The position numbers were made by a program, and so were the translations under genes. A stretch of 63,707 nucleotides of DNA, counting the filler, from Olpidium bornovanus S191 (Eukaryota > Fungi > Olpidiomycota), in assembly GCA_017911155.1 (NCBI GenBank). It is 34 parts of 34 records of this genome, joined end to end, with 100 filler letters (N's around TTAATTAATTAA, not from the genome) between each part and the next. Parts side by side here need not be neighbours in the genome. Positions count along the whole stretch, not along the records: positions 51,580 to 55,607 come from JAEFCI010008314.1; positions 55,708 to 57,693 come from JAEFCI010001337.1; 32 more parts are not named here. The stretch is one strand, 5' to 3'. Positions within the stretch are counted from its first letter, which is position 1, and each line of letters begins with the position of its first letter. Below, in pieces: positions 51,580 through 63,707 of this stretch. Below the pieces are notes generated by a model. That model made no database searches and was not told where the DNA came from. It was given only the letters and a program-made list of their open reading frames with translations.

Positions 51580-53476
51580 CATGCTGGCCCGAGATTTCAC
51601 TCAAAAAAAAACGCAACTTTTGGAACCGCTGAAGGGCCACACGCTGAATACGGATGAGCCCTTCGTGTTGACTTTCGGGTATCTTTGGCGCAATGCACAT
51701 CAAGCCTGGTGGATCTCCTACTCGGAGAAGCTGCGACAAAATTTGAACGCCGGACTGCAAATTCCGACCATCAGCGGCAGCTTCGGTGAACATCACACTC
51801 AACATAAGAATGGTGCGATTTCGACGCTCGTTTTCTCGGCGACCGCGCGGCGTAATCGCCCGGTCTTATCTGACCTTTTGTGTTCTGTGTGTTCTTAGCG
51901 CCCCTTCCAATTCCACAGCAACACCACCAGCAGGCGGTATTCGACCGCGGCCGCTTCGACCTTGCCCAGTACCACCGCGCGGTGATCGCCCGGCTGCGGG
52001 TGCTGTTTCCGCGGCGGCGGTACAACTCGGTGTTCCTCGACGAGCAAAACTACCTCCGGCTCGGCGCCTCACTCATCCAGCGTCTCCCGTTTCCCGCCAG
52101 CGGCGCGGACGCGAGGGAGATCGCGGCGCGGGCTGTGGCGAACATCGTGGTGCGGCCGTACAGCCTCGGGCCGTCGGAGAAAACGCAGATCCTAAGGCAC
52201 CTCAGCAGCAACGAGGGCGCCCGGCCGGCGCTGACGGCGACGGGAAGCGCCTGGGTCCGAGGGTGGAGTGGGTCGGTCCCTGCCCTCTCTGTCGGCGAGG
52301 TTGGCCCGGTCGCCAGCCCGTCTACCGTCATAGCGCGCGGCTGGGCCACGCTGGTGGAGAAAGCAATGATGCTCTGCGGAATATTCCTGGGACTTGACGT
52401 GGACGCGTACGTGGCCTTTGGGAGGGGTAAGCGCTTTCTTGGGCAGGCTGTTGCCTATCCTCGCTGCTTCTTGACCCCCCCCCCCCCCCCCTTCCCCCCC
52501 CTTTCCATTCCGATCCCGTTTCCAAATCGGACGGTCGTCTGGGACGAAAAGGCGGGGAAAGTGGGAAATTCCCGCTCCCCGTTTTTCCTCTCTGGTCTTT
52601 TGAGTGGTAATGGGACGCGTATTCGGTAACCTGCTCGCTCGCCAACGCCGCATCCTCCGCTCTTCCGTCCTTTTCGGCCCAAATTGGATTGCAGCGTCCT
52701 CTCGCGCCAGCGTATTTGTCGTGACGTTGGACGGCGCCAAACGCGGCGGCGCCAACAAAGAGAACCAGAACTCGTCCAACCAAAACCCCCCGCCTGTCGT
52801 GATCCGCGAGCTTGCCAGCAGGACCATTCCGGAGAAATTCAAGCAGTACGCCGAGCTTTCGGCCGTGCACAATTCCAACAGCCGCGTTACCGTCAGGGTG
52901 TGGGACCCGTTTACAGGTGGAGGACCCTTTTTTTCCGGGTTTTGTGGCTTTTCGCCGGACGCCCGGCCCGGACTTTTTCGGCGCCCTTGACAGAACTGCG
53001 ATTCTCCAGGAAAATCGTTTGAGCTGACGGACCCCAGCATACCCTTCACGGTCGTCCGGACGATGATGAACGACGAGAACGTTTTTTTCTGCATCCAAAA
53101 GTCCGACGTGTTCACGAGGTGGGGGGGAAAAGTCTTCGGTTTTTTTTCTTTTTTTTTTTCATTCCGGTTTCGGTCGACGCGCAGCATGGATTGACGATCG
53201 GTAAACCGCAACGTTTTTTTTTTCCCTCAGAACGGCTTTCTCATGGGATATGCATGACGCCAAACGATGGCTCCCGCTCCTCACGCCGTCGTCGCTCAGG
53301 AATTTCGGGCGCCTTAGGAAGGCGTACCCGACTTGCGAAGCGCTTAAGGCGTACAGCGTGACGCCTACGGTTGATGAGAAGTAAGTGAGCTCGGTTCATG
53401 CCCGCCACGCTCCCGGAAAAGTTCCTTCCGCGTCCGAAAAATCGATTGTTCGAGGTCTCACGGAGCGCGCATCCCT

Positions 53477-53559
<83 letters not shown>

Positions 53560-54355
53560 CAACCACCCCCCGGGTGCAGGGCGCTGGTTTCCGCCCTGGC
53601 GCAGGCGATCCGGCATTACCGGCACCACGTGGTAATGCGCCCGGACACGCATTTCCACCGGACGGCGTCGCTGGCGATGCAGTCGATGATCCCGCTTTTC
53701 GAGGCGCGGTGGCGGGAGGAGCGCGGCGAGGTGGTCAGGCGCAAGGGCGACAAGTACCTCTTCGACGGCCGGTGGCTGCCGGAGGTCGGCAAGGCCGGCG
53801 ACGGGGAGCCGGCCTGGAGGCGGGACCTGCACGCCGAGCTCCAGGACGCCGTGACGACCACGTTGCCGGACGGAACGATTTTTTTCGGCAGAATGTACAG
53901 GTTTGTCGACGACCACCCGCTGAGAATCGTCGAACAGCTAGGTAGGGGGACGACGACGACGGCCGCTGCGAAAGGGGGGGATTGGGGGGGGGTTCACCGC
54001 AAGCCGAACCCGCGCGAAGCCGCTAAAAAGAAAACGGGCGGGTTCACGAGCTCGCTTCTGGTTTTTCTCGTCTTTTTTGACTTTGTTCCGCTCCTTTTTC
54101 TTTTCCCTTTTTTTTGTTTTTTTTTTCCCCCTTCTGTTTCCATCCTGCCCTTCCCCGTTCTCTCAAGCGACCCTCGGAGCCCTCAACTGCGCGTCCGCGG
54201 ACGCCCTGTTCGCCGTCGCCGGCAAAGTTTTCCACAAGCCTTTGGCGTCGAAGACCGCCTGGGTCGGCGTCGGGCACATCACGCGCCTCGTCGAGGGGGA
54301 AGGGTCGGGTCTGGGCATCGGCGTCATCACGAAGGCGAAGGCCAAAAAGTGGTGA
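51580..54355 (+). CDS. CC2D2A(MKS6)/CEP76-family centriole/transition-zone protein, C-terminal transglutaminase-like region
   Basis: LFPRRRYNSVFLDEQ, EIAARAVANI, AMMLCGIFLGLDVDAYVAFG, VWDPFTG..P..V..MNDENVFFCIQ, THFHRTASLAMQSMIPLFE, ELQDAV..LPDGTIFFG, FAVAGKVFHKP..AWVGV align by eye to recalled CC2D2A/CEP76 blocks. Confidence 0.72.
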
Positions 54356-55759
54356 AATCTTTTTTTTTTTCCTCCCTCTGTCTCTCTCTCTTTCTCTTTC
54401 TCTCCACTGTTAATTTGCGCTTTTGTTTCGAGTAGACCCAAAAAAAATATTAAAATCCCCGTCCTCCCCCCCCTTCCCCGGGAAAGGAACGGTGTTGTCA
54501 GACTGGCGGCAGATTTACGACGCCGACCTGCCGGCGAAAAGTTTGAGAACTCTATACGCGCCCGCCGGCAGGAGGGTTGGGTTTTCTAGACCCTGAGTGT
54601 CGGCGCGGCGGGCGGCGTTTCCGCCCCTCCTGTGTTCTCTCTCTTGTCTCTCTCTTTCTCTTTCTTCCGCTCTCTCTCCCGCACCCCTTGCCACCACCCC
54701 CCACCCGCGAGTCTCAAAACGTGGAGAAATTCTCGTTTGCCACCGCTGGTCGTTTGGATGCGGGGAAGGCCGAGGGAGGGGCGCGGGGGGGTGTTCGGCG
54801 GGACTCCAGCGAACGGGTTGCCGCGCTGAGGGAAACCAGAGAAACGAGAGCCTCCGCCGAAAAAAAAAACTCTTCAGGAGTGTTTCAGAAGTGTTCAGAG
54901 GGGGGAGTTTCTGCTTGGCCGTGTATGTGGTTTACTTTTGCAACCGATTGGCCGCCATAGAATTCCCGGCTTTTTCTCTTTTTTCTTTTGTCTTCACAGT
55001 CGAGTTCTGAGAACCATTCGGCACACGGGACTGTTTATATAATTGCGTGCGCAGTCCCAGAAGTCAACGACGAAAGAAAAAAAAAGATCTTAGTGTGTCT
55101 TTCTGATCGCCGTGGGCTGTGGCGGTCCTCGTCGTTACAACCACAGGTGGAAACATAAGTAAAGAACGTGTCGTGTCTTTCGAGGTGCCTCTTTTTCCGT
55201 CCGTGCCGCTTCCTGCTGAATGTCCTGTTTTGTTCAGACATGCCTATCGGCCCTTCAGGCGCTCCCCTGCTCACTCTCATCGAGGACAACCCCGCTGAAC
55301 CTATTACGCGGCCTGGGCCGCACACCCAACCTCCAAGTCGCCGTACGCAGCGTAGGCAGAACCCCGGCATCCTTTACCCGTACCACTGTACCCCCCGAAA
55401 AGACGCCCGCGCAATTGCTATTTGCTTTTCGACCTGCTGCATTCCTGCGACTTAGCCGTTGGACCCGGCATAATATGTGGTGTGGCGCATGTGCTTGCGC
55501 CGTCTAAAACTGTGCTGCAATTCTCCGCCGTATATGAAAAGGAGTATCTTCAGAAGGATTGGCGAACATAAGGTGTTTACTGTTGCTTGCACTCAGGAGG
55601 CTTGTCGNNNNNNNNNNNNNNNNNNNNNNNNNNNNNNNNNNNNNNNNNNNNTTAATTAATTAANNNNNNNNNNNNNNNNNNNNNNNNNNNNNNNNNNNNN
55701 NNNNNNNGTTCTTTACTCGCACATATCTATCCGGTCTCCCCAGCGTACCGACCCCGCAC

Positions 55760-57452
55760 ATGTTGTACGCCGGTAATCCCCTTCGCACAGGGCCTCCGGC
55801 GGGGGGCCTTCGGCCCCCCTAGATACTCAGCGTTGTCCGCGCCAGGCGGCCTTCGGCCGCCGGCGCTAAATACAGTCGAGTTCAACCCTAACCCTAACCC
55901 GCAACCTTCGACGACCAATAAAGCACCGCAAAGGCCACCCACGTCATCTCTCCAGGCAATCCAATTCGGCCGCCAGGTCGGCACCTCGAAACTTGTCGTG
56001 TCGCAATTAAAGCAAAATACCGCCCTCCCCCCGTCTTTCGTCCGCCTCACCAACGCCGACGGCGCCCCGTCGGTTCCCTCGCACGCCTCGTGAAACACGA
56101 CTTCGCCCCCCCGGAGCTCGTGCATCTGCTTTCCGACACGATCTTCCGTGTACCAGATTTTGTCGTCTTCACAGATGACGGTGCTCCCCCGGCCGGCGCT
56201 CGCTCGGCGAGCCATCCTGTTTGCAAACTCGGCGGCCGCGCAAGCGACGACCGTCGGAGGCGCGCGCGGCCCCGCAAACGCGCACGCCGGCTCGGCGGTC
56301 GGATTGGGCCACAACTCAAAGTGGTGTTTTAGGGCCGAGGCCTTCGTGCAGTTCCCAGGCGAGACGTGGAGCAGGGCGGCCTCGTCATAGTCAAGAGGCC
56401 GCACGAGAGTATCTGCGACGCAGACGTCTAACAAGAAAGCACGTGGGTTGGGGTTAGGGCGGAGTGTTAAAGGCCGGGTGTCAATACAACGACGCAACGC
56501 GTGGTATCGAAACCCCCGCACTATCCACCCCAATAATCAACCGAAGGTGTTACCTCGGGTGATCGCTGCAAAGTCCCACGCTTCGCCATCCCGCAGCAGT
56601 CGCCCACGCGGCGTCCAGTCGTCGTCGACGGCGACGGCGCGGAGCGGGCACTTGCCACGCTTTCCGCACCCGATCATCCGGAACTGCTGGGACACGCAGT
56701 ACGGGGCCAGATCCACAAGTGAGGTCCCCGTTAACCCCGAACACCAGACGACAGCGGTGCGGTGTACCCCGTCGCTCACTTGTCTATACAACATACTGCA
56801 AACCTGAAAGGATCTTTTTTGTCAGAACTGCTTACTCTTCTTTGATTGTGCACGCGGTATCGATACCCCCGTACATACCTTCCGAAGAAACACTGAAAAC
56901 TCAAAAACGGTAAATAACATCGAAGTATGGTGATGATCGAAGATGAAGTCACCAAAGATTATGTGCAGGGAGAACTTGTCTCTCCTGCATGCGGTGAGGA
57001 CGGTCGGCGGCTTCGCGTCCGCGACCGTCGGGAACGCCCGCGACAAGAACTTCCGGAGCGCTTTTAAGAAAATGCGTGCGATCTGCAGCGCGACCTCCTC
57101 CGTCATCTCCTTCCCGACCTCCCTTCTAAACTCCTCCTCCGCCGCTCCCTGCTTCACAACATCCCCCGGGTACACCTCCTCCAGCGACCTCCGCAGACGT
57201 GTCTCATCGACGTTCGGAAAGGCGAGCTCCACGTCAAAGTACAACCGCGCGGGCGCTTCCCCGAAAACCACTTCGTAGGCGGACGGCGTCCTCGTAAGCC
57301 AGCAGCGCCGCAGGAACGAAGCGGCCGTCGCCACGACGAACCGCGAACCGCTTCTTCCCGCGCTCCGTATCCTCGGCCCACACGAAAGACCCATGCCGCC
57401 CCGCCATTGCCTGCTTCGCGATTTCCAGTTTGTAGAAGACGTTGGTGTTCAT
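55760..57452 (-). pseudogene. Archaeo-eukaryotic primase (PrimPol-like) plus Zn-finger gene, spliced, with one frameshift (exons 57452-56879, 56803-56554, 56427-?)
   Basis: AEP motifs AYEVV..RLYFDVE (I), KFSLHIIF (II), VDLAPYCVSQQFRMIGCGKRGK (III); HEACEG..PSA..FCFNC. Two frame-preserving GT-AG introns; 7-bp duplication frameshift at 57338-57351. 3' end unresolved. Confidence 0.82.
55801..55861. repeat. Two perfect GC-rich hairpins with a 3-nt loop (GAA on minus strand)
   Basis: GGGGGGCC-TTC-GGCCCCCC at 55801-55819; GGCGGCC-TTC-GGCCGCC at 55845-55861. Confidence 0.95.
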
Positions 57453-57652
57453 CTTCGGTGGTTTGTAGCGTAGTACCGGTGGTTTGTAGCGTGGTATCGA
57501 TACTCCTGCCAGTGGGGGAAAAGGGGGGGAGGTTCGACGGAGGGGAGCCCTTTTTATCCCCCCCCCCCCCCCAAAAAAAAAAAAAAACAAACAAACACCC
57601 CCCTACCCCACTTCCCTTTCAGAGGGTTTTCTGGTATTTGGGTATCGATACT
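56503..57652. repeat. Dispersed palindrome GGTATCGATAC(C/T), four copies
   Basis: 56503-56514 (one mismatch), 56856-56867, 57493-57504, 57641-57652. Confidence 0.93.
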
Positions 57653-58024
57653 TCGTATACATTCAAAAAAGGAGGGAGCCAAGTTCTTTAATANNNNNNN
57701 NNNNNNNNNNNNNNNNNNNNNNNNNNNNNNNNNNNNNTTAATTAATTAANNNNNNNNNNNNNNNNNNNNNNNNNNNNNNNNNNNNNNNNNNNNCACCATG
57801 GTCTCCTGTTTTCTTTCCTTTTTCCTTCTTTCCTTCTTTCTTTTCTCTTTTCTTCCGGGGCGGAAGAAGCGGGCGCGGCACGCGCCGCGCCCCCTTTTAT
57901 ACCCGGGGATCGCGCCTTTTTTTTTCCTCGCCGTTTGTTTTGGCTTTTTTTTTTACCCCCCCCCCCCCCGCCCCCCCCCCCCCCCCTCCCCTAAACGCGG
58001 GGGGGCCCCAATTTTGGGACCCCC

Positions 58025-59436: not shown

Positions 59437-59760
59437 CACCGTGCAGTCGAAGACGAGGTGAGTGAGCTCGCGCGGCAAATGAGTGCGTTGCGTTTGGATT
59501 TGAATCGCGTGCTTGTAAACGGGGGTGCAATCGAGCGGGCAAGGGCTGGCCCGACTGCCCACGCAAGATTTATGCATCTGGTGTGACGTGACTGGGCACC
59601 GCCGCCACCAGTGCCAAAACTTTGAGGCGGGGATACACGCTGGCGCAGTTAAGCTCGTCGATGGGAGGATCTGCCAATGGGAGCGTCCTTGGAACCCGGT
59701 TCGGGCGAGGAGGGATCCGAGAGACAGTGCGTGAGGAGCAAGGCTACGCGTCCCTAGGGC
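59437..59760 (+). mobile_element. Ty3/gypsy-like gag C-terminal remnant with Zn knuckle, two frameshifts
   Basis: VEDEVSELARQMSALRL / CIWCDVTGHRRHQC..GAVKLVDGRI / NGSVLGTRFGRGGIRETV. Confidence 0.65.
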
Positions 59761-61296
59761 CCCGGGGCTCGGGGTCGACGAATCCCCCTGCTGTCCGTGG
59801 ATTCGTGATGCGGGCCCACCATGACTGGCACGACAATCAATTACCGGGGAATGGTCTGAGAAACTCTTCGAGAGGTTCTTCAAGCTCGTCTTCGAATGTG
59901 TGTGATTGGTGGCTCGCAGAGTCGCGGTCTGAGGCCTGGGACGCCTCGGCTTGGACGCCCGCAAACACTGCGTGCATCGCCGGATGTCGGGTCACCTGCG
60001 CGCACATGGACGCGAGCTTTTGGGGAAATAGGTGGGCAGTTGGGAACAGGTGGTGCCGGGCCTTGTGGAAAGTTGTTGTTCCAGCTTTCGCACTCGAAAC
60101 TCCAAAACTCAGCCTCTAAATTCCAATTCTCCCGAGCGTCCTCTTTGTCTTTTTTTCTCTTCCTCTCTCCTACTCATTCTGGGGTTCGTTCGCTCTACAA
60201 CTCTAACGTTACTCGAGGACGCGTTCGTTCTATTCTGCGAGAATTTTTGCCGCGCGTGGGCGTTCAGGGGGGGGTCGTTCCAGAAATTTTTGGAGGGCGG
60301 GGCGGAAGAAAGAAATTCTTTTTGGGGGGGACCATACGCGTCTTGAGTCATAACACGTAATCCTTCTTTTTCCGCAGCCTTGCTACCAGCCCAATCTTTT
60401 ATCGGTAGTCTCCTTGAGCTTTTCGCTTCACAACAGCCGCCCCCCCGGGACTGACGAGCTTGTTTCGCCAGTCACGGTGCATCACGTGGCTGACAGCTCT
60501 TTTGGTTTTTAACGAGTCGGATCTGGCTCCACCAACGCCACTCGCCCCACGCCGTTACCACACCACACTTCAGTTTCCCCCGCGTCCACCCGTCCACCCA
60601 GCCACGATGTCGCCCTCTGCGTCCGCTGCTCCTGCGTCCGCCCCGGTCCTGTTTGGCGGGAGTCGTCTCGACGCCAGCACCCGTCGGATCTACACGGCTA
60701 TCTGGGCGCACCGGTTGCGCGATTCCCGCAGCTTGCTTGCTGCCGCGGCTGCATGCGTCGCCGATCGGCCAACACCGAAACGCCAATGCACTTTACGTGG
60801 ACGCATGATTCGCTTTATCCATTACGCGTGGAGGTTTCGCGCCGTCCATGAGGACGGAAGCACCTAAGCATGCGTTGCCCTTCTCCAGTCAGTCCCGATC
60901 CTTCCTTCGTAATGCAACCCCACTTTGGCAAATAACCTCGCGTTTGATTTCTTGCAGACTTCGCCGTTCCATGATCGAGGCGTTCCTTCAGGTCATGAAT
61001 TGGCCAGCCACCTTTTGGCTGCCCGCGGATCCCCGCGACCTGGAATTCCTGTTCCTGCCGTCAGACACGCAATACTGTGGTCCTGGTGGCCCTGAGGATT
61101 GCGACTATGATCCGCGTCCCGCCCCCATCGCCGATGACAGTTATATTCAGGTCCGCGTTCTCATGCGCCCGGTTTCCCTGCCACAACCAGACGCCGNNNN
61201 NNNNNNNNNNNNNNNNNNNNNNNNNNNNNNNNNNNNNNNNTTAATTAATTAANNNNNNNNNNNNNNNNNNNNNNNNNNNNNNNNNNNNNNNNNNNN

Positions 61297-62531
61297 AGTC
61301 CGGGAGAGGTTGTGGTTTGGCGGGTAGTTCTTCGGCACGCTTTTTCCCTCGTCGCTGACATACATCACAAGTACGAACGTAATTTCGGACGTCCTCTTCG
61401 ACGCCCGGCCAGAAGTAACGAGCACGAACACGGATAAGGGACGTCTCGTTGGCGTAGTGTCTATGTCGGTCATGGAGTTCTTCGAGAATAGCTTCTTTCT
61501 TGCGATCATCGCATCCGAGGAGCACGCGGCGCGGCCAGTCCGGCGCGCGCTTGTGTAGCAGGCCGCCTACGAGGAGAAAACGCGCAAGTTGCCAACGCAA
61601 ATGCGGGGAAAGAGAGGAGGGGTCCTCGTGCTCGAGAGCGTGACCGATGGTGACTAGATTGGCGTCCGCGGGGTGAAACTTTGGTGAGATCCGATGCGGG
61701 GACACTCGTCCGGGCGGCAACGTCCCTCGCGCGGCAACTCGGACCGCAAGTACCGGCCAACGAGGGCTCCCGACAGCAACACGATTGTCTGTGTATCCAG
61801 GTAGAAACAAATCAAAATCCCGCGGCAAGGCGACGGGGTGGTCAATAGCATGGGCCGCCATGGCGGGAAACCAGTCTGCCGTCGTCCAGACGGGAATCAG
61901 GAGCGTGATCCTTGCGTCGTCAGACTTGACCTTGTTCAGGATGCGCCAGAACGTGGCGGACTCGAAAGAAGGGTTGGCCCATCCGTTTTCACCAGTTGAG
62001 AGAGAAGGCGTCTGTAGCGACGGCGTCGGCCTCCGGCTTGAGCGAGGCGTACCGGGGAAGCTGGTAGTTACGGGCAGACGCGAAAAAGTCGATAGTATGT
62101 GGACCCCAACGGGCATCCAAAGCTGCGAACCAGGCGGGGTGCAGCTTCCAATTTGTAGTGTGCAAACGTGAAGCGAGGAACGACGAAGCGTCGTCAGGGA
62201 GAGGGGGGCGATAGGCCACTGAAGAGACAAGAGGCTCCGGCATTGGAACAACACCTCCATCAGGGGGGCGAGGCCCGCCCCCGATGTCATCACTTAGCGG
62301 CAAAAGAACTTTGTCCTTGACTCGTTTCCGTGTCCTTCTTCGGAGGCGTCGTCGAGCGAGCGATCCGACATAAAACGATATGCCAAATGATATGACAACG
62401 CGGGCAAACGATCCAACGCGGCGCTGTTGTTGTTGAGGCCGCAAAGAACCTTGTCCTCGACGCCGTTGTCGAGCAAACGATCCAAACGATCCAACGCGGC
62501 GGCATCCAAATGATCCGACGCGGCGGCATGC
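61297..62531 (-). mobile_element. Retroelement pol fragment: DIRS-type methyltransferase-like domain fused to gypsy-type integrase Zn-binding domain
   Basis: WKLHPAWF..WGPHTIDFFASARNYQLPRY..DAFSLNW /frameshift near 61990/ GWANPSF..ILNKV..TLLIPVW..WFP, then in the same frame ILEELHD..H..RARYFWPGVEEDVRNYVRTCDVCQR. Confidence 0.85.
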
Positions 62532-62631: not shown

Positions 62632-63641
62632 CCCTCGCGGTTCTAAGCTGGACCACGTACGGTCTGCCGCTGAGACGTACGTAGCCCCTGGTCAAACCGA
62701 AGGCCTCGCAGATTTGCCAAAAGGAGGGGGGCTGGCGGCCTCCCTCATCATGGACTTTGCTGCAACTCACAAACGACTCTCAAAGCGTTTGGATTTTCTC
62801 GTAACGTGCTTATACCGTTGTCCTCGGTATCCGGCGACTATCCGGCAACAGCTCAAAATGATGGGAAAACGCGCGTAGCAGGCCGGGAAAGTTTTGATCG
62901 TCGAGCCTTTCGACGACCGTCGCCGGTGGCGGACGTTGAGGGACGTACGTAGCACCTGACGCGTTCGAGTTTCCAGGCTACAGGCTACTGTGCATCGACT
63001 GCCTGACCCTTGGAGTCACGAGAGGTTTGCCAGGTTTGTAATCGGCTCCTCCTGAGACGAACGTAGCTCAACCTGTCGCCACAATCCACTTAAAACTGGC
63101 GGTGATCAAAGTGGGTATATTCCAAATGGAGTATGGCGCTTTTTAAGGAGATTACATTTACGAGGTGAAGTGCGGACGGCAGTCTATTGTCTCGTGCCGG
63201 GGTGCGGTTGAGGGCAGCCGCGGGGGAGCGGGGGAAGGGGGGAAAATGGCGGATAATTTGTGCAGAACGGTCGCCGGTGCTCCAAGGCTCCAAAGCTCCT
63301 GCGCTCAAACATCGCGAAGCAGATCACAGGCTCCTGCGCGCAAGAATCGCGAAACAGACAGGAGACGTTGTTTAGCCGAGAATACCTCCGATCTGGCGGG
63401 TAAATTAACCAGAACGACATCTGCCGCGAGCAACGGCGTCCCTCCCCACCTCGCCATTATGTCCTGTAAGCTCATCTTGGCCAGGGAATCCGCGTACTCC
63501 GCCACAGACATTTGCACCTGTATCTCGCCGGTCACGTCAGCAAACAGCTTCTCGTACGTGACCTCCGTTTCTTGCGACTATGCCGGTCGTTCGTTGGGGC
63601 GGAGAGCGCGGGAATCGACATTCACTTCCGGTTCTCTCTAA
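62632..63641 (-). CDS. Unassigned spliced hypothetical gene fragment
   Basis: Protein-like blocks (VTYEKLFADVTGEIQ..LQDIMARWGG; VVERLDDQNFPGLLRAFSHHF; FWQICEAFGLTRGYV) with plausible splice sites. Family not recognised. Confidence 0.3.
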
Positions 63642-63707
63642 ACACCAGCGTGGACACGAGAAACAAACATCTCCCAGTGTCTCGCCACTCGCGACTGCGA
63701 GGAAACC

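Follow-up and report, generated by a model that had tools for sequence, protein, structure and literature searches.

Does the sole gene on a short contig of Olpidium bornovanus S191 encode the housekeeping primase-polymerase PrimPol, or a primase of viral or mobile origin, and if the latter, is it still a working replicase? The gene occupies contig 55708-57693 (1,986 bp, GC 0.59), one part of what we call the window, that is, the whole stretch of 63,707 nucleotides analysed (positions 1-63707). The window is made up of 34 contigs of 1 to 4 kb joined by 33 identical spacers, N44-TTAATTAATTAA-N44, which are artificial linkers. The neighbours of 55708-57693 are therefore unrelated contigs, and gene order across the window is without meaning. 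The GC of the contig matches that of the other contigs, and its GC and CpG match the rest of the window. Contig 51580-55607, which carries multi-exon host-like genes, served as the control contig for the sequencing runs. Elsewhere, minus-strand frames at 61297-62531 hold what we take to be methylase-like and integrase zinc-binding motifs, presumably signs of a retroelement pol as in DIRS/Ty3-type elements; further frames resembling retroelement remnants lie at 59437-61196 and 62632-63707.

The gene runs on the minus strand, with the following parts.

55708-57693, no strand: whole contig, with linker joins on either side
56879-57491, minus strand: exon 1, which carries the conserved N-terminus, then the frameshift, then motifs I and II of the AEP; the spliced contig starts at 57491 and the first ATG is at 57452
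57337-57350, minus strand: 7-bp tandem repeat where the frame shifts, the conserved N-terminus lying on one side and the catalytic part on the other
57227-57241, minus strand: AEP motif I, YFDVE, of the DxE type (sequence motif)
56963-56971, minus strand: AEP motif II, SLH (SxH; sequence motif)
56804-56878, minus strand: intron 1, 75 nt, GT..AG, with one palindrome copy inside; skipped in the spliced contig
56554-56803, minus strand: exon 2, with AEP motif III (spliced contig, alignment to relatives)
56699-56713, minus strand: AEP motif III, DLAPY (DLAPY..QQFR spans 56713-56675)
56428-56553, minus strand: intron 2, 126 nt, GT..AG, with a one-mismatch palindrome copy inside; skipped in the spliced contig
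55943-56427, minus strand: exon 3, homologous part (alignment to relatives)
56003-56092, minus strand: predicted zinc finger, H-x2-C..PSA..C-x2-C, conserved across relatives
56092-56081, 56062-56054 and 56014-56003, minus strand: finger pieces HEAC, PSA and CFNC (sequence motif)
55727-55942, minus strand: read-through tail without homology, stop at 55729-55727, overlapping multicopy sequence

As a sequence-only reading of this DNA had claimed, AEP motifs I (57241-57227), II (56971-56963) and III (56713-56699) occur in order. Motifs I (DxD/E), II (SxH) and III (D) in this order, together with relatives that match the AEP fold, place the gene in the AEP superfamily. The same reading proposed two clean introns, 56878-56804 and 56553-56428, and both are borne out by a 1,420-nt contig from sequencing run X1, which spans 57491-55871, skips the two introns exactly and otherwise differs in one letter with no gaps. 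In run X2 the intron 2 junction is spliced as well (depth 2.9). Each intron has a CTRAC branch-type site, a length divisible by three and the only in-frame stop (TGA) of its stretch, and both are insertions when aligned with intronless relatives. A code in which TGA means Trp is ruled out, as both TGA codons lie within introns that the contigs skip. The finger was correctly recognized as H..PSA..C..C, while its first spacer is four residues, not the five first given (HEACEG-x4-PSA-x12-FCFNC). In the public gene model, P0002, motifs I and II fall in a stretch called as an intron, by which the model avoids the frameshift; this call is at odds with the spliced X1 contig, which contains that stretch.

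The frameshift separates two conserved parts. Read from ATG 57452, the frame stops at 57236-57234 after 72 codons, and its N-terminal portion corresponds to residues 2-36 of the relative P0010 (53% identity over 36 residues); the catalytic frame picks up again at P0010 residue 37. The spliced X1 contig carries the 7-bp tandem repeat (57350-57337) with no gap, and an assembly error is disfavoured since that contig has the same shift. From a third AUG, at 57394, runs a spliced frame of 488 codons that includes every AEP and finger motif but lacks the conserved start; the two AUGs upstream of it sit in the old frame and reach stops after 72 and 57 codons. That the motifs and finger are intact in a 488-codon frame argues against long decay. 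Just 5' of the first ATG, a 21-bp tandem repeat (57456-57497) overlaps one palindrome copy.

Pieces of the gene also occur in runs X2 and X3. On control contig 51580-55607, the two runs together show at least five spliced GT..AG joints with almost no differences and thus behave as RNA from the same or a near-identical organism. Run X1 has only short unspliced pieces there, at depth 3-9, while its depth is 37 on the intronless AEP gene and 59 and 228 on two repeat-bearing contigs, depth being a poor measure here. X1 is RNA with an admixture of DNA or pre-mRNA, or else DNA that includes an intronless copy; we favour the former because its spliced contig begins 39 nt before ATG 57452. Stretches lacking coverage in runs X1-X3 prove nothing.

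The gene's own exons and the 538-residue read-through have no match in Pfam or the PDB, and the single-sequence fold of P0002 reached a pLDDT of 32. A word-indexed protein search, which misses known relatives, returned only P0002 and two of the alignment's own members, with none among shorter proteins. A phmmer search with P0002 (E<=0.001, 1.84 billion representatives) gave 22 relatives. As the query in this 50% search is without motifs I and II, its sample covers relatives that resemble the gene outside that part. All 22 share the finger region. In 11 of them a Walker A motif follows shortly after the finger, while the remaining 11 stop a short way past the finger; seven of the 22 are 935-1,118 aa long. 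The herpes origin-binding family PF02399 is above cut-off in P0006 and P0021, and PF23162 (C962R AEP) matches two proteins weakly. The UL52 family PF03121 is found in none of 23 proteins at E<=0.1, nor in the 538-residue read-through at E<=10. A profile of 10 relatives matches herpes origin-binding protein (E 5.6e-14) and, over the AEP core only, human PrimPol (E 1.3e-12); eight of ten members match phage family phrog_4913.

Structure agrees with the profiles. A model of P0013 (mean pLDDT 63) aligns with HSV-1 origin-binding protein over 517 residues (Z 21.7, rmsd 10.1) and with PrimPol over 217 (Z 14.9, rmsd 3.9). In a viral library its best named matches, at 10-16% identity, fall among SF2 helicases and the replication origin-binding proteins of giant viruses; ASFV F1055L ranks 50th. 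Atlas features, a lead only for P0002 given the low shared counts, point to NCLDV and herpes primase clusters (0.91) for that protein and to Herpes_ori_bp clusters (0.98-0.99), commonest in Mucoromycota or viruses, for P0013. The fold and profile comparison proposed in the sequence-only reading, done here on the relatives, matches the AEP core with PrimPol and the helicase half with HSV-1 UL9. That reading had raised the possibility of an SF3 (D5) or UL9-like helicase: the relatives have the UL9-like SF2 type, fused after the finger, and not SF3, so they do not belong with the D5-like AEP-SF3 proteins.

The His, Cys, Glu, Gly, Ser and Phe of the finger do not vary across 12 finger-bearing sequences, and the last two Cys hardly vary. 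In P0010 and P0021 a Cys replaces the His, as a metal site would lead one to expect. The finger matches no Pfam family in these 12 sequences, and a finger profile has no sequence match in the PDB. Its PS[AF]..CFxC pattern may resemble the finger of CHC2 (DnaG-type) primases.

Five of the 20 relatives looked up (all but P0017 and P0022) have a species name, and all five are chytrid: three from Blyttiomyces helicus, one from Phlyctochytrium bullatum and one from Chytriomyces sp. MP71 (accessions RKO90975, RKO93048, RKO83382, KAJ3093699 and KAI8612591). The remainder trace to contigs 1-8 kb long in JGI/IMG, Logan or ENA. None of the 20 is named as viral, though one is labelled 'uncharacterized phage-associated protein' in IMG. 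The three Blyttiomyces paralogs are 63-74% identical and form a clade (support 100/99), and each is without one motif (Walker B, a finger Cys or motif III), which may reflect gene-model errors. A family tree of 15 rows, restricted to family members with short fragments left out and no outgroup, leaves the window copy unplaced. Searches for the relatives' loci found none from viral contigs (protein scans, DNA pattern), metagenome contigs, prokaryote genomes or phages (tblastn).

The window copy ceases to resemble its relatives at 55943, some 25-45 residues short of their helicase Walker A. When the family profile was run against the window, cut into 1,857 six-frame fragments, three strong segments and a weak N-terminal piece were recovered, and no helicase remnant. 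The earlier suggestion of a working replicase continued off-contig is not supported, given the frameshift, the end of similarity at 55943 and this absence of a helicase remnant in the window. Beyond 55943 lie the following features.

55711-55900, no strand: multicopy sequence, shared with X1 contigs, in which two perfect hairpins with GAA loops lie
55845-55861 and 55801-55819, no strand: the GAA-loop hairpins (z -3.7, 0 of 200 shuffles)
55884-55900, minus strand: short telomere-type (GGGTTA) repeat (sequence)

The 190-nt multicopy stretch also opens a 4,371-nt X1 contig, with 10 differences in 190, and that contig continues past 55708; a TATA-like string follows the shared stretch there. A 2,848-nt X1 contig contains 42 nt of this stretch, adjoining telomere-type repeats. 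As 55711-55900 recurs in other X1 contigs, contig 55708-57693 ends inside multicopy sequence. Possible identities of this stretch are a retroelement attached to a telomere, an end of Helitron type, or the remainder of the element. Rfam gave only six matches, all sub-threshold. Telomere-attached Penelope-like elements bear reverse-complement telomeric repeats, according to the available part of PMC8557442, and the orientation of the GGGTTA repeat would fit such an element, a likeness we treat as a lead only.

A palindrome, GTATCGATAC, recurs in the non-coding parts of the contig.

57642-57651, no strand: upstream copy 1
57494-57503, no strand: upstream copy 2, adjoining the start of the spliced contig
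56857-56866, no strand: copy in intron 1
56504-56513, no strand: copy with one mismatch, in intron 2

At up to one mismatch there are four copies in the window against 0.34 expected (0 of 100 shuffles), statistics that are overstated because the motif was picked after looking. All four fall in the 680 non-coding bases of the contig, with none in its 1,311 coding bases and none in the 58,817 other bases of the window. The two introns have in common a 20-mer with three mismatches (0 of 300 shuffles). The palindrome may be a binding site for the element's protein, the trace of a small intron-making transposon or a host element; its core is presumably that of the Drosophila DRE. Among the titles listed in a literature search for the palindrome, none concerns such an element.

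How does this family compare with known systems? The closest architecture is that of viral AEP-UL9 proteins, which the available text of PMC11253617 places in mimivirus R8, ASFV pF1055L, Ostreid herpesvirus 1 AAS00940 and, as SF2_hel, a subset of Yaraviridae, and that of PMC5862659 also in some phage and plasmid AEPs. As far as these sources describe R8, pF1055L, AAS00940 and SF2_hel, they share with the relatives an intact AEP at the N-terminus and a UL9-related SF2 helicase at the C-terminus in a chain of about 1,000-1,200 aa. The relatives have this helicase fusion, whereas the window copy does not. The relatives also have a conserved H/C-x2-C..PSA..CFxC finger between the two domains, which may set them apart (several viral-library matches are instead labelled PriCT-2), and they differ in their identity of only 10-16% to viral-library matches and in having named members in fungal genomes; the window copy is, in addition, spliced, frameshifted and without the helicase. 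HSV-1 UL9 (PDB 9hgi), the top structural and profile match of the relatives' helicase half, belongs to the orthoherpesvirus UL9 proteins, which are without an AEP domain (PMC11253617, in the portion available), while the window copy is without any helicase. With eukaryotic PrimPol (PDB 7jk1, 5l2x) the gene shares the AEP fold and motifs I (DxE), II and III, but the finger is different, with no match to the UL52-like finger that assists in PrimPol (PMC4905188, available text), and the relatives are fused to a helicase. A chytrid PrimPol is noted in the available text of PMC8373064.

Endogenous viruses of early-diverging fungi likewise carry viral replication genes, as described in the accessible parts of reports on Mycodnaviridae (PMC13533422), a Rhizophagus GEVE (PMC10640383) and chytrid PLVs (10.64898/2026.06.19.733378), and genes of viral origin in the Rhizophagus region have introns (PMC10640383, same limit). 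The replication genes in these descriptions are instead D5/SF3 primase-helicases and PolB or pPolB, along with capsid genes, and the accessible text of these three sources, PMC11296320 and PMC11161782 describes no AEP-UL9 fusion in fungi. A search by title or abstract start found no literature on this AEP-UL9 family, which subscription papers and supplements may cover.

We conclude that the gene is not PrimPol, as the sequence-only reading had held: none of the 23 proteins matches PF03121, the PrimPol match is confined to the AEP core and relatives are fused to a UL9-like helicase. The DxE motif I, SxH and motif III are alike, and both the AEP profile and the fold match human PrimPol, so a divergent cellular ortholog was considered; with no PF03121 even in the 538-residue read-through, and several paralogs in one chytrid, this is scarcely credible. 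A eukaryotic PrimPol would be expected to stand alone as a single-copy gene without a helicase, while 11 of 22 relatives have a helicase motif and Blyttiomyces has three paralogs. Very improbable, too, is an origin of the contig in another eukaryote or a virus in the sample. The assembly was binned from non-axenic zoospores (available text of PMC7865070) and the contig has no host gene, but its GC matches the other contigs, the named relatives are in other zoosporic fungi, and X2 and X3 hold pieces of the gene alongside near-identical spliced contigs of the neighbouring host-like gene.

Two further explanations grant the family assignment and differ over what the window copy does; we regard both as unlikely. 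In one, the host has domesticated the gene, and the third AUG, 57394, yields an N-terminally altered, helicase-less AEP with its finger, a stand-alone repriming enzyme that replaces PrimPol. In its favour are splicing that is exact in two runs, the integrity of motifs I-III and the finger, the 488-codon frame, host-like GC and the presence of gene pieces in X2 and X3, runs that also contain spliced contigs of the neighbouring host-like gene. However, the first two AUGs, both in the old frame, reach stops at 72 and 57 codons, the lost N-terminus is a conserved one (the 53% match to P0010), and the C-terminal tail passes through a multicopy repeat. In the other, a multi-gene element is active, with its helicase past a long third intron or in a separate gene, the hairpin repeat and the 4.4-kb contig as parts of it, and the X1 intronless molecule perhaps a DNA copy. 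A possible donor site at 55942, the clustering of palindromes and hairpins resembling replicon signals, and X1 depths of 37, 59 and 228 against 3-9 on the control, poor measure as depth is, point this way. Against it, the X1 contig passes the site at 55942 unspliced and reaches 55871, shows the frameshift too and has an mRNA-like start 39 nt before the ATG, and at 80% likeness the 4,371-nt contig does not match the AEP exons.

The gene is probably, in our view, the relic of a viral-type primase-helicase of AEP, predicted finger and UL9-like helicase, one that stems from a DNA virus, or a mobile element, of zoosporic fungi. Such an origin had been proposed from the sequence alone, and it fits both the closest known architectures and the multiple, damaged-looking Blyttiomyces copies. 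'Virus or mobile element' is drawn from architecture and copy pattern, as no capsid, integrase, transposase or terminal repeat is tied to members. GC and CpG values like those of the remaining window, and the lack of any relative named as viral among the 20 looked up, also weigh against this reading. By its motifs and domain order, the family would work like the viral AEP-UL9 primase-helicases. In intact members, the UL9-like half of one protein would bind and unwind the origin, the PrimPol-like half would lay primers with the finger assisting, and bulk synthesis would fall to a nuclear polymerase, either the host's or a viral one. The window copy would have gained or kept spliceosomal introns and lost its helicase at the junction with the telomere-type repeat and multicopy hairpin sequence; now nuclear, it would still be transcribed, with only a 72-residue peptide from its first start codon. 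More tentatively, and with considerable doubt, the family may represent an undescribed class of nuclear DNA virus or self-replicating transposon of zoosporic fungi served by one origin-binding helicase-primase that has a zinc finger of its own, with the palindrome in the promoter and both introns as the protein's binding site (intron iterons) and the GAA hairpins and telomere-type repeats as an element end or priming site.

The window copy is probably dead, which limits its own interest. Fungal DNA viruses are only now being described, and the replication modules met in the published text available are D5/SF3- or PolB-based. A chytrid- and Olpidium-associated AEP-UL9 family with an unclassified finger offers a probe for missing fungal DNA elements, and the five named accessions make the carrier of the AEP-UL9 gene directly testable.
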